Assembly: GCA_938048755.1 (NCBI GenBank)
Contig: CALIUG010000107.1
Coordinates: 3,994 to 67,993, forward strand
Length of the DNA: 64,000 nucleotides
Reading direction: 5' to 3'
Source of the DNA: an uncultured Alphaproteobacteria bacterium
Lineage (GTDB): Bacteria > Pseudomonadota > Alphaproteobacteria > SP197
This document shows positions 4,005 through 62,001 of this stretch, piece after piece. Both the position numbers and the translations under genes were made by a program. The first letter of the stretch is position 1; each line of letters begins with the position of its first letter. Below the pieces are notes generated by a model. The model was not told the origin of the DNA. It ran no database searches and saw only the letters and a program-made list of their open reading frames with translations.

Positions 4005-4321
4005 GGCGCGGCCTTGCGCAGTGCGGCAATCCGAGTGGCGATCTCGTCTTCGCTCACCACGCCTTTTTCCACCACGATCATGCGGATCGATTCGATCCAG
4101 CGCTCGTAATAGCCCAGCTTCTCATAGGCGTCCGGGCCCAGGGTCTCGATGCCCCGGCGCAGTTCGTCGACCCGCATGAGACCACGCTTCTCGTCCGAGA
4201 GCAGGGTCAGCATGGCATCCACCTGCTTTTCCCAATGGGCGGGGTTGTGTTCGGTCTGATCAACTGGTCCGGCCTCAAGGCCAGCCAGGTCGTGGTATCC
4301 GCGATGATGGTCGTTGTTCAT
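4001..4321 (-). CDS. Nitrile hydratase beta-subunit N-terminal domain protein
   Basis: MNNDHHRGYHDLAGLEAGPVDQTEHNPAHWEKQVDAMLTLL...LGPDAYEKLGYYERWIESI matches the NHase beta N-terminus 'MNGVHDxGGxxGxGPxxxxxxEPVFxxxWExxxFAM...MxPAEYLxxxYYExWL'. The split-beta arrangement is the one known from toyocamycin NHase (ToyK/ToyL) and thiocyanate hydrolase. Confidence 0.7.
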   Translation of the reverse strand: MNNDHHRGYHDLAGLEAGPVDQTEHNPAHWEKQVDAMLTLLSDEKRGLMRVDELRRGIETLGPDAYEKLGYYERWIESIRMIVVEKGVVSEDEIATRIAALRKAAP

Positions 4322-4353
4322 GGCGCGATGATGGAACGCGGTTGCGTTCGAGT

Positions 4354-54036: not shown

Positions 54037-54470
54037 TGTTTGTTTGTTCCCTCAGACGCCGGGCGTTCGCTCCGCTGTTTATCTTTGTTCCCTCAAGCGC
54101 CGGGCGTTCGCTCCGTTCGCTTGGCTTCCGGGCCTCCCGGCCCGCCGGTGCGGTCGCACCGGTCGGCGGCCGCTGCGCTCTCGCCGCCGAATGCCTGCTC
54201 ACCGGTGGTGCAGGGTGCCTGTCACAACCGCCTCAATTGTGTCATCCCGGCTTTGAGCCGGGATCCCGGTCCGCACGTTGCTTTTGAAACCCGTCATGAC
54301 GCGATCCCGGATCGCGCTCGCGCTGCTCGCTTGTCCGGGATGACATCCCGTGGGGTGGTTTGTAGGCGAGAGGTCCCGTAGGGACCGAGGGGAGCGACTG
54401 CGACCCCACCGCGTCAGCGGCGCAAGCCAAGCGGACGGAGTTCGCGCCCGGCGCTTGAGGGAACAAACAA
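54037..54470. mobile_element. MITE-like nonautonomous element (~434 bp) with ~36-bp terminal inverted repeats, a tandem duplicated left end and nested internal palindromes
   Basis: The left end TGTTTGTTTGTTCCCTCAGACGCCGGGCGTTCGCTCCG is tandemly duplicated (54037-54115). The right end CGGAGTTCGCGCCCGGCGCTTGAGGGAACAAACAAA (54435-54470) is its reverse complement. Internal hairpins include CCGGTGCGgtCGCACCGG, CCCGGCTttgaGCCGGG, GTCATCCCGG...CCGGGATGAC and GGTCCCgtaGGGACC. Confidence 0.5.
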
Positions 54471-59143: not shown

Positions 59144-59551
59144 ATGGCGGACAAGGTCAACTTCGAACTGGTCAGTCCCGAGCGCCTTCTGGTCTCGGAT
59201 GCCTTCGATATGGTTGTGATTCCTGGTGGTGACGGCGAATTCGGCGTCCTGCCGGACCACGCGCCGCTCATCTCGACCATCCGCCCCGGTATCATCGACG
59301 TGCATGAAGGCAGCAGCATCGCCCACCGCATCTTTGTCGGCGGTGGTTTTGTGGAAGTCCTGCCGGATCGCTGCACTGTGCTGGCCGAAGACGCCGTCAT
59401 GGTCGCCGATATCGACCGCGCCCTGGTCGAAGAAGATCTGCGTGAGGCCGAACTCACCCTGCGCGACGCCGAAAGCGATCACGACCGCCGCCGCGCCGAA
59501 GGCAATATCGCAAGGCTCGGCGCCATGCTTGAGGCGGCCCGCGCCAACTGA
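59144..59551 (+). CDS. atpC: ATP synthase F1 epsilon subunit
   Basis: 135 aa directly after atpD, with an epsilon beta-sandwich N-terminus FELVSPERLL. Confidence 0.9.
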   Translation: MADKVNFELVSPERLLVSDAFDMVVIPGGDGEFGVLPDHAPLISTIRPGIIDVHEGSSIAHRIFVGGGFVEVLPDRCTVLAEDAVMVADIDRALVEEDLREAELTLRDAESDHDRRRAEGNIARLGAMLEAARAN

Positions 59552-59731
59552 TCGGCGCGGTGCCTTTTGAGGCCGCATCCCAACTGACGCATCGATTCAG
59601 CCCATCCCTTGTCGTAACCCGGCTCGCCCCTCAGATGTCCAGTTCAGGCTTGTTCTGCATGGATAGAGGTGTCTCTGGGACCAACAGACGTTGCGAATCT
59701 GCCACTTTCGACCTGCACTGCCGCAATCTGC

Positions 59732-59844
59732 AGGTGTTCGTGCATGGATCGTCGAATCGAGTTCGACGATGACAAAGAGAACGTGAAAGCGCAGGGTTTT
59801 CAATTACTTGGAGTCATCGTCGAACTCGATTCGACGATCCATGT
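59732..59844. repeat. 30-bp perfect inverted repeat (arms 59732-59762 and 59814-59844, 51-nt spacer); each arm itself contains the palindrome CGTCGAA-N5-TTCGACG
   Basis: GCATGGATCGTCGAATCGAGTTCGACGATGA ... TCATCGTCGAACTCGATTCGACGATCCATGt, seen directly. It lies in a ~650-bp lower-GC noncoding tract between the convergent atpC and LysR genes. Confidence 0.6.
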
Positions 59845-60198
59845 ACTGCCGGTAGAACACGCGATTTCGCTGGACGCAGCCACGATCTCATCGCCCGTCC
59901 AAAGTCTTCGAGGTACCGCGCCAACCACCTGGACAACACGATGTTCCGGGCCGACTTGCTACAACCGCAAATCCGGACTAGGAACAAAAAAGTGAACAAA
60001 ATGCCGTGCCTCTCAACATGCACGAACCGGACGACCTCACCTGATGGTGATCCACTACGCTGCGTAGCAACTACCCGTCCGGAGCGGCCCATAGCCGGTC
60101 GAATTCTACTTTGCATGGGGTTGAACCCCGAAAAAGCGACGAAGCCCTCCCCCAAGTGATGTTTCTCACCCTTTGTCGATCGTGAAATCTAGGATGGT

Positions 60199-61104
60199 TC
60201 AGTCGTTCCGCTCGATTGTTTCCTGTACCTGGTTTTCGATCCAGGTTGTGAAGGCCCGGATCATGGCGGCGGTTGTCGGCTCCTCGACTGTGGTGATCGT
60301 GTATCCCGGCGTGTCGAGCACCAGTTCGGGGAAGGGAGCGGCAAGTCTGCCGGCCTGGCGCGCATCGGCGGCCAGAAACCAGCTCGCCAGGGCGATGCCA
60401 TGGCCTTCTTCGGCCGTCAAAAGACTGTGGTGGCAGTCCGAGAACGTGGGGCCGGAGGTCGGGTCGAGGTTCCGGAGCCCGACTGAAGTAAACCAGGCAT
60501 GCCAGTCCTCGTCGGTCTCGTCGTGGAGCAAGGTCAGTTCGGGAAGCCGTGCGGGTTCATCAAGGCCCTTGACCAGATCGGGGCTGGCATGGGGCGTGAC
60601 GTGATCGCCGGGGATCAGCCATCGGGTGTCCGGCCCGGCATCGGAGCTTCCGCGTTCGATCACGATATCAACTTCGTCGGTGTCCCAGTCGACGTCCCGG
60701 TCTGTACTGTAAAGCCACAGATCGATGTCGGAATGCAGCCTTCGGAAGTTGTGAAGGTGTGGCACCAGCCATCGGCTGGCAAACGCCGGTTCCACGGCGA
60801 CGATCAGAGAGGCCGGATTGCCATAGGCGCGCGCCCGCAGAATGCCGTGGTCCAGGCGTTTCAGGCACTCGCGCACCACGCGCCAGAACTCAAACCCCGC
60901 ATCGGTCAGGGCGACCTTGCGGTGTTCCCGGTGGAACAGGGGCTGGCCCAGCGCTTCTTCCAGCGTCTTGATCTGATGGCTCACGGCCGACTGGGTCAGA
61001 TGCAGTTCTTCGGCGGCAGCCGTGAAGCTCTTCAGCCGCGCTGCTGCTTCGAACCCGCGCAGGGCTCCAAGCGGCAGGTGCGATATGGGTGTGGGCCGCG
61101 CCAA
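60199..61104 (-). CDS. LysR-family transcriptional regulator
   Basis: HTH LGALRGFEAAARLKSFTAAAEELHLTQSAVSHQIKTLE. Starts 3 nt after the BKACE gene stop, so it is probably co-transcribed. Confidence 0.85.
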   Translation of the reverse strand: MARPTPISHLPLGALRGFEAAARLKSFTAAAEELHLTQSAVSHQIKTLEEALGQPLFHREHRKVALTDAGFEFWRVVRECLKRLDHGILRARAYGNPASLIVAVEPAFASRWLVPHLHNFRRLHSDIDLWLYSTDRDVDWDTDEVDIVIERGSSDAGPDTRWLIPGDHVTPHASPDLVKGLDEPARLPELTLLHDETDEDWHAWFTSVGLRNLDPTSGPTFSDCHHSLLTAEEGHGIALASWFLAADARQAGRLAAPFPELVLDTPGYTITTVEEPTTAAMIRAFTTWIENQVQETIERND

Positions 61105-61107
61105 ACG

Positions 61108-62001
61108 TCAGGCAGGTTTGCGCAGGTTGAGCTTCTCACGTGCCTCTGCGGGCGTCAGGACCCGCGCGCCCATACGCTCGATGATACCCACGGCCTTCTC
61201 CACCAGCTGGCCGTTGTTGGCCAGAACGCCGCGGGAAAGATAGAGGTTGTCCTCCAGCCCGACGCGGACATTGCCGCCCAGGGCAACGGACTTTGCCACC
61301 ATCGGCATCTGGTGGCGCGAAATGCCGAAGGAGGACCAGAAGGCGCCTTCTGGCAGGATATCGCGCATGGCCAGCATGACCCTGGTGTCCGTTGGCGCGT
61401 TGTGGCCGATGCCCAAGCAGAGCTGGAACATGGGCGGAGCATCGAACACGCCCTCTTCGACAAGTGTTCTTGCCTGCATGATCGGGCCGACGTCAAACAC
61501 CTCAAGCTCCGGCTTCACGCCGGCAGCCTGCATAAGCTTGGCCATCCTGCGGATCGCCGAGTCGTTGCCCAGATAGGCAACGTCTTCACCAAAGTTGATC
61601 AGGCCCATATCGAGCGTGCAGATCTCTGGCAGCAGGTCCAGGGCATGGGCCACGCGTCCCTCCGGGATGGTGAGGTCGCTGCCTTCCTGCCATTCGCCCG
61701 GCTTGTCGTCGTCGATGATGATGGCGCCGCCATTGCCGCCGGTCAGGTTGATCACGACATCGGTCTCGCTTTCGCGAATGCGCGCCACGACTTCGGCGAA
61801 AAGCTCGGTCTTGAAGGCATTCTGGCCGGTTTCGGGGTCACGGACGTGGCAATGGACGATGGCAGCACCTTCCTTGGCGGCCTGGATGGCGGCTTCGGCG
61901 ATCTGCTTGGGCGTGACGGGCACATGCTCGCTCTTGCCGGCGGTATCGCCACCGCCGGTCACGGCGCAGGTGATCACCACTTCGTTGTTCATCTCGTCCA
62001 T
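61108..62001 (-). CDS. Beta-keto acid cleavage enzyme (BKACE/DUF849; 3-keto-5-aminohexanoate cleavage enzyme family)
   Basis: VVITCAVTGGGDT...HCHVRDPETG...NLTGGNGG are BKACE TIM-barrel Zn-site motifs; 297 aa. Confidence 0.8.
   Translation of the reverse strand: MDEMNNEVVITCAVTGGGDTAGKSEHVPVTPKQIAEAAIQAAKEGAAIVHCHVRDPETGQNAFKTELFAEVVARIRESETDVVINLTGGNGGAIIIDDDKPGEWQEGSDLTIPEGRVAHALDLLPEICTLDMGLINFGEDVAYLGNDSAIRRMAKLMQAAGVKPELEVFDVGPIMQARTLVEEGVFDAPPMFQLCLGIGHNAPTDTRVMLAMRDILPEGAFWSSFGISRHQMPMVAKSVALGGNVRVGLEDNLYLSRGVLANNGQLVEKAVGIIERMGARVLTPAEAREKLNLRKPA

Follow-up and report, generated by a model that had tools for sequence, protein, structure and literature searches.

Does the long inverted repeat found downstream of atpC in an uncultured Alphaproteobacteria bacterium constitute a gene or a site that belongs to that locus, or is it one copy of a repeat that is dispersed in genomes of this kind? 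The repeat lies in a stretch of 64,000 nt of contig CALIUG010000107.1 (GCA_938048755.1), here called the window, within a gap of 647 bp (59552-60198) bounded by the 3' ends of atpC and of a convergent gene for a LysR-family regulator. An earlier description made from the letters of the window (the sequence-only reading) had proposed for it a structured small RNA (sRNA) gene, a replication or recombination site, a pair of binding sites for a dimeric protein, or a degenerate miniature inverted-repeat transposable element (MITE). According to the analysis presented here, the inverted repeat is very probably a dimer of repetitive extragenic palindromic (REP) sequences of the CGTC-tagged superfamily, that is, an ordinary genomic repeat and not a special gene or site. 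Its family is a new member of a published REP class, in this case from an uncultured alphaproteobacterium.

The inverted repeat and its units

The 30-mer CATGGATCGTCGAATCGAGTTCGACGATGA is present at 59743-59772 in the forward strand and at 59814-59843 in the reverse strand without a single mismatch, such that the perfect 30-bp inverted repeat with palindromic arms is as first described; the arms are 41 nt apart, instead of the 51 nt initially given, and the 31-mer originally quoted differs from its reverse complement at the outermost position, where G faces T, so that 30 of 31 match. The sequence CGTCGAA-N5-TTCGACG, noticed before, is contained in both arms, where it grows to a 9-5-9 palindrome, ATCGTCGAA-N5-TTCGACGAT. 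No further copy of CATGGATCGTCGAATCGAGTTCGACGATGA with up to 3 mismatches was found in the 64 kb, and two matches to it occurred in none of 100 shuffles. Complementarity extends imperfectly to arms of 49 nt (59740-59788 and 59798-59846, 84% complementary), and the predicted fold has an energy of -94.7 kcal/mol with z = -8.3 in the forward strand and z = -7.2 in the reverse strand. Related loci are numbered here with an L. Three further assemblies, each independent, carry the repeat unbroken (L001, L002 and L081, the latter a 93.9%-identical orthologue of the window locus); with four independent assemblies in agreement, an assembly artefact was rejected. L004 and L005, two short contigs from the same strain, end exactly at the end of arm 1 (window 59772-59774), as would be expected if assemblers break at inverted repeats, and the short metagenome contigs L070, L080, L082 and L091 also end in or beside REP units.

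Each arm corresponds to a unit of 34 nt, whose family form is GTGCA-TGG-ATCGTCGAA-TCAAG-TTCGACGAT-GAC. Read in the canonical strand, the family shows an NGTC tag, a 9-bp stem ATCGTCGAA, a loop CT(T/C)GA, TTCGACGAT, a CCA tail and TGCAC, and the window units read (A/T)GTC-ATCGTCGAA-CTCGA-TTCGACGAT-CCA. Unit 1 (GTGCA-TGG, ATCGTCGAA, loop TCGAG, TTCGACGAT, GAC) has one mismatch to the family consensus and runs tail-first in the forward strand, with the CCA tail of the other strand pointing outward, and unit 2 reads AGTC-ATCGTCGAA-CTCGA-TTCGACGAT-CCA-TGTAC in the forward strand. GTGAAAGCGCAG and GGAGTC, both in the spacer between them, recur in the spacers of the copies L047 and L060, to which the window aligns by BLAST at 83-85% identity over about 105 nt.

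A covariance model, R1, was built from 31 distinct units. In these units, 97.5% of the stem cells are paired, and four of the nine stem pairs present changes at both sides (G-C to C-G, A-U to G-C) with some G-U pairs, while loop and flanks stay constant. The covariation score was reached by none of 500 shuffles, and slid registers were all far below it. This stem covariation argues that selection or copying keeps, in each arm, a nucleic-acid hairpin and the fixed unpaired bases around it, and not a peptide or a duplex operator. R1 matches in the window are the two arms only, and in the related loci there are 82 unit matches in 45 loci.

Copies in related genomes

A collection of species-representative genomes was scanned for the core ATCGTCGAA-N5-TTCGACGAT. 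The scan gave 62 loci, mostly single matches within genes of unrelated organisms; among them, two alphaproteobacterial metagenome-assembled genomes (MAGs) carry several cores, namely OZ242015.1, a chromosome of 3.75 Mb with 8 scattered sites, and A_MB180, with 9 sites over 5 contigs. The cores of both MAGs share the flanks of the window, GTGCATGG before and GAC after. A stricter pattern used on a metagenome collection produced 31 contigs, again with flanks as in the window, and clustering of the 600-nt flanks distinguished 30 genomic contexts. Compared by BLAST with 72,556 plasmids, the dimer gave no match.

The units are mostly paired in opposite orientation with start-to-start distances of 71-77 nt, forming a dimer of about 107 nt (73 nt between starts in the window). 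The copies are largely extragenic, frequently 35-100 nt past a stop codon and frequently between convergent genes. In fact, single units exist, as in L089, where one unit stands at the site that holds a dimer in the orthologues L096 and L082, and there are also heterodimers whose second arm has another self-complementary stem, such as ATCCTCCGA-TCAAG-TCGGAGGAT, with head, loop and GAC unchanged. Since single units and heterodimers exist, the repeat unit is the arm and not the pair. The arms of heterodimers fold singly, and the long hairpin is impossible for them.

Two distant sites of OZ242015.1 (L030 7816-7973 and L061 289-446) share, at 92% identity, a segment of 158 nt with a REP unit at its end. 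The similarity is inverted; no transposase and no partner arm go with it, and it was set aside as just a longer local composite variant, with no ORF (open reading frame) of note nearby.

Assignment to the CGTC-tagged REPs

CGTC-tagged REPs were described by Di Nocera, De Gregorio and Rocco (2013, BMC Genomics 14:522; PMC3733652) mainly in alpha-Proteobacteria. According to that description, the stem has 8-9 bp with A-T and T-A as pairs 1 and 2, the loop has 4-5 nt and belongs to a small number of recurring types, the tail is CCA, and the CGTC tag is frequently replaced by TGTC or CCTC; the units often form dimers, homo- and hetero-, with spacers of 20-100 bp, lie mainly downstream of genes, number as low as 20-100 units or fewer per genome, fall into sub-families with complementary stem changes, and have no dedicated transposase (PMC3733652).

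The window's family follows this configuration closely. The window has the tags TGTC and AGTC, and other copies have AGTC, GGTC, TGTC or CGTC, with GTC near-invariant (at least 90% conservation in alignment columns 32-34, which show it as GAC from the other strand). The stem ATCGTCGAA/TTCGACGAT has 9 bp, pair 1 being A-U in 28 of the 31 units and pair 2 U-A in all 31, and the loop has 5 nt, TCAAG/CTTGA in the family and TCGAG/CTCGA in the window. The CCA tail is found at 59839-59841, and as TGG at 59745-59747 in the forward strand, as well as in nearly all copies. OZ242015.1 and A_MB180 each have many, mainly extragenic, copies, with compensatory stem variants. Translations point in the same direction: the supplement of the cited paper gives, for intragenic units, VIAGLDPAIH and MDARVKPAHD for CGTC-3 of R. 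palustris and VIPWLDHGI for CGTC-4 of R. conorii (PMC3733652), and the window arms translate as VIVELDSTIH and MDRRIEFDDD, with the L-D codons in common with the published units. From this agreement, a common skeleton GTC-AT...CTNGA...AT-CCA can be drawn.

How would such an element act and spread? As RNA or as single-stranded DNA, a single unit would fold into a hairpin; for the dimer of about 107 nt, two small hairpins are one possible fold, and identical arms, such as those of the window, also allow one long hairpin. The element may be a non-autonomous DNA that spreads, or formerly spread, by means of a trans-acting enzyme that would recognise the hairpin along with its fixed unpaired flanks on single-stranded DNA; RAYT enzymes are reported to act in this way on GTAG REPs (PMC3116915; PMC3479197). 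Since no mobilising enzyme was found in the REP-bearing loci, it is the distribution of the copies alone that speaks for mobility. With less assurance, we infer that the element has no function specific to the atpC-LysR locus, where any local effect would perhaps be generic at most, as a hairpin at RNA 3' ends or an obstacle between the convergent transcription units.

Several observations weigh against the assignment to the CGTC-tagged REPs. The family is low-copy, with about 8-9 exact cores per MAG sampled, and the 64-kb window has a single copy of it. The sequence-only reading had named membership in a high-copy genomic REP family as the discovery that would overturn it; a REP family it is, but with those numbers it is not a high-copy one. 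No mobilising enzyme appeared in the window or in about 314 kb of REP-bearing loci: tblastn with a RAYT sequence gave nothing, which is a weak negative, and a screen of 1180 ORFs for HUH motifs gave no match. The conservation of the dimer and the following 257 nt in L081 could mean local constraint, as seen from two sequences only. Finally, the usual CGTC dimer is of the 'HH' type, with tags outside, and 'TT' dimers are rare (PMC3733652), whereas the dimer of the window and those of about 19 other contexts have the tags inside and CCA outside ('TT'), L073 being the only tags-outside arrangement within the family. The paper gives 'HH' as a tendency of the class and not as a defining feature.

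Alternative explanations

Among the other readings, the one that survives best is a classical MITE, which would derive by deletion from an insertion sequence (IS) with a DDE transposase and have the two arms as terminal inverted repeats bound by that transposase. Uniform dimers of about 107 nt at many unrelated sites, with spacers partly conserved among some copies, are what such an element would leave. However, target-site duplications are absent from the seven dimers inspected, where the flanks extend the palindrome by C...G instead, and neither a transposase-like ORF, nor a parent IS, nor a long element bounded by the arms was present in the loci examined. Single arms and compensated stem-swapped arms persist by themselves, and covariation within the arm suits recognition of a hairpin rather than of a duplex terminal repeat. 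We therefore hold the classical MITE to be highly improbable; the initial suggestion of a degenerate MITE came close as far as a miniature, probably mobile repeat is concerned, and fails in the duplications and the parent IS that would mark IS derivation.

Even less credible is that the long hairpin is a functional RNA, from a small structured RNA gene or a 3'-untranslated-region element in the atp operon, with a regulatory function of its own. In favour of it, the hairpin is predicted to be very stable, some family members have G-U pairs, and in L081 the dimer is 97% identical. This last value is about the level of the flanking genes, as is the 95% of the next 257 nt, and the whole of 59740-60103 is kept at 95-97%. 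Against a functional RNA, no promoter-like site was found in 59400-60400, the repeat stands in both orientations at 30 unrelated contexts, and the heterodimers are unable to form the long hairpin. The Rfam search proposed by the sequence-only reading was carried out at permissive E-values for the tract and for eight related loci and gave no family near threshold: the best match in the tract was mir-598 (23.8 bits against a threshold of 69), and the related loci gave at most sub-threshold matches of the miRNA-hairpin type. The dimer is located 189 nt past the atpC stop and 353 nt past the LysR stop, and no U-tract follows the hairpin; on account of these distances and the missing U-tract, it is not a canonical terminator.

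The least probable reading, an operator pair for a dimeric DNA-binding protein such as the adjacent LysR regulator, draws on two perfect 9-5-9 palindromes 68 bp apart beside a regulator gene, but the place is the 3' end of both neighbours and not a promoter, the palindrome is present at unrelated loci without a LysR gene (e.g., the orthologous gap of OZ242015.1), and the G-T pairs and whole-stem swaps found beside canonical arms would need several different proteins. Nothing supports a locus-specific protein-binding pair. Likewise, we obtained nothing in support of a replication or recombination site.

With the REP dimer as the preferred reading, the inverted repeat has little meaning for the atpC-LysR locus itself, from which a candidate sRNA or regulatory site is removed, and it explains why assemblers break there.

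The surrounding tract

The sequence-only reading was right in that the tract between the convergent genes, about 650 bp, has a lower GC (0.53-0.565 versus about 0.58-0.66 in the flanks) and no convincing ORF. All its ORFs are short (up to 113 aa), and a Pfam search of five of them gave no match. One gene caller proposed an ORF of 83 aa over the repeat, whose sole relative in 5.8 billion proteins is its own orthologue. A coding reading was rejected, considering that the ORFs are without Pfam match and that stem-swapped arms alter the encoded peptide wholesale. The Pfam labels of atpC and the LysR gene were taken over from L001, a contig 99.5% identical to the window. The coordinates of the features are collected in Table 1.

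Table 1. Positions of the repeat units and of other features in the window and in related loci
Feature	Sequence	Positions	Strand	Remarks
Second REP dimer, other stem family	Window	54240-54345	.	Gap upstream of atpH; from AT-N7-loop5-N7-AT search of window
atpC (F1 epsilon subunit)	Window	59144-59551	+	Upstream flank
Isolated GCATGGAT 8-mer (unit head plus 2 nt)	Window	59658-59665	+	No palindrome after it, no R1 match
REP unit 1, 34 nt	Window	59740-59773	+	R1 57.2 bits, E = 5.6e-13
Inter-unit spacer, 39 nt	Window	59774-59812	.	Partly self-complementary
REP unit 2, inverted	Window	59813-59846	-	R1 53.3 bits, E = 5.9e-12
GAAC-N8-GAAC	Window	59982-59997	+	Same site in L081 is GAAC-N7-GAAC (4324-4338)
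Motif 2, TTCTACTTTGCATGGGGTTGAACCCC	Window	60104-60130	+	266 nt right of dimer; conserved
LysR-family regulator gene	Window	60199-61104	-	Convergent flank
Motif 2	L031	1362-1377		
Motif 2	L096	10164-10179		
Motif 2	L079	279-294		
Motif 2	L081	4193-4208		
Motif 2	L082	7440-7455		
Motif 2	L089	6460-6475		
Motif 2	L092	~4122-4137		
Motif 2 variant	L044	5918		
Motif 2 variant	L073	4317		
GTTC-N7-GTTC / GAAC-N7-GAAC	L081	4324-4338		
GTTC-N7-GTTC / GAAC-N7-GAAC	L044	5870-5884		
GTTC-N7-GTTC / GAAC-N7-GAAC	L092	4171-4185		
GTTC-N7-GTTC / GAAC-N7-GAAC	L079	402-416		

Among the smaller elements announced for the tract, an additional GCATGGAT exists at one site, not at the position 59676 given for it, and this isolated 8-mer is probably chance or a decayed remnant. 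Both small palindromes are real, CTACGCTGCGTAG at 60045-60057, displaced from the approximate 60055 first indicated, and GGGGTTGAACCCC at 60117-60129. A weak terminator-like hairpin at the end of atpC (59539-59560) is not conserved in L081 and was rejected. Comparison with L081 also revealed a sharp boundary of divergence, since the 68 nt from motif 2 to the LysR stop (60131-60198) are 59% identical and the rest of the gap 91-97%.

Another REP dimer in the window belongs to a different stem family and has its tags outside: TGTC-ATCCCGGC-TTTGA-GCCGGGAT-CCC ... ATCCCGGA-(22-nt loop)-TCCGGGAT-GAC-A. Its family is found also in L071 (330-433), where the spacer matches in reverse complement, and as one unit in L078 (10154-10181). 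From the dimers at 54240-54345 and 59740-59846, it follows that the atp operon is bracketed by REP dimers.

The locus L031 of OZ242015.1 is the orthologue of the atp operon of the window, with 86.6% nucleotide identity, and the organism of the window is considered kin to OZ242015.1 and A_MB180. The L031 gap downstream of atpC has no LysR gene, and yet a variant of the window palindrome is present. The counterpart of window 59549-61206 is L031 457-3205, about 2.7 kb without a convincing gene, which holds a single REP variant with a long stem (2479-2523) and two copies resembling motif 2. The gap has the appearance of a hotspot of elements of these kinds.

Motif 2 is a strictly conserved sequence of 16-25 nt with the form (C/A)TAC(T)N(T/G)TGCATGGGGTTGAACC. 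The core TGCATGGGGTTGAACC is identical in L031, L060/L096, L079, L081, L082, L089 and L092, with variants in L044 and L073, and the surrounding sequence is otherwise unalignable between contexts, save that a C-rich run usually comes about 20 nt after the motif. Motif 2 shares the (G)TGCATGG head, GTGCATGG, with the REP unit, from which it is separated by 100-270 nt in five independent contexts and by about 1.1 kb in a sixth one (OZ242015.1). In addition, four of the ten GTTC-N7-GTTC matches in the 314 kb adjoin motif 2 (48-121 nt), two of these four with AT-rich spacers; motif 2 sits 48-121 nt downstream of GTTC-N7-GTTC in three contexts, and in a fourth, L073, a version with one mismatch, ATTC-N7-GTTC, lies about 50 nt upstream of the motif. 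We take the spacing of GTTC-N7-GTTC to be that of the alphaproteobacterial LexA box; as the site of the window has N8, it may be inactive.

The idea that motif 2 and the LexA-like sites mark a DNA-damage-responsive transcript or binding site tied to the REP family is a long shot; if it were true, motif 2 might give a handle on the processing or mobilisation of CGTC REPs. Around the motif, the search for a conserved RNA structure gave a hairpin of 3 bp with no covariation, and motif 2 had no Rfam match. Three other candidates were tried and rejected. A small ORF, 'MPC...CMGLNP', passing through motif 2 has flat substitutions by codon position (9/14/16 and 16/17/18), and its frame is broken in L089. 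A promoter and a terminator read by hand beside the L044 variant were both negative with a consensus scanner, the fold having z = -2.5. Lastly, a decayed tags-outside dimer as in L073 was considered, with 60016-60118 as its interior, and the similarity was limited to the head of 7-8 nt.

Comparison with known systems

The REPIN-RAYT system (Bertels and Rainey, 2011, PMC3116915; PMC3337134) also consists of an inverted pair of REPs with a short spacer, a regular doublet of about 100 nt capable of forming a hairpin; the doublets are dispersed in intergenic DNA, and single units look like decayed doublets. REPINs differ from the window's family in being GTAG-tagged, mainly from Gammaproteobacteria, usually present in hundreds of copies, and linked to a RAYT gene that is single-copy and has these REPs on its flanks. 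The GTAG (GTRG) tag is found at neither end of the window's unit.

The Rickettsia elements RPE-4 and RPE-6, equated with CGTC-4 and CGTC-1 (PMC3733652), have the same hairpin skeleton, and their inserted units translate as V-I-x-x-L-D-x-x-I. The Rickettsia copies are frequently intragenic and in frame, whereas those of the window's family are mostly extragenic.

Plasmid pSymB of S. meliloti is listed as a carrier of CGTC-3 (PMC3733652). A search of its first 300 kb for generic AT-N7-loop5-N7-AT palindromes recovered units of the form CCTC-AT[CT]CCTGTG-CTYGT-CACAGG[GA]AT-CCA, some of them as dimers of about 110 nt. The layout of tag, stem (9), loop (5), stem and CCA is the same as in the window's family; the differences are the stem ATYCCTGTG, the tag CCTC, the loop CTYGT and the tags outside the dimer, and no similarity between the two sets is detectable by BLAST. 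The pSymB palindromic repeats presumably overlap the 'RIME' elements of Rhizobium.

The closest resemblance is with CGTC-3 and CGTC-4 themselves, an assignment between the two that rests on the text and supplement of the paper and on the pSymB scan. The window's family coincides with them in the class of the host, the NGTC tag, the 9-bp stem, the 5-nt loop and the CCA tail, as well as in forming inverted dimers whose spacers measure about 40 nt, in its tens of copies and in having no associated transposase. The stem ATCGTCGAA is peculiar to the window's family, which also has five extra conserved bases, TGCAC, past CCA. The reversed polarity and the longer tail are minor variations within a known kind. 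We know of no mobilising enzyme or means of spreading for the CGTC REP class; the reversed polarity, the extended tail and the neighbouring motif 2 are small leads on how these REPs are recognised. To this class, the repeat downstream of atpC adds a well-resolved family, with covariation, homo- and heterodimers, and a polymorphism between single units and dimers at orthologous sites.

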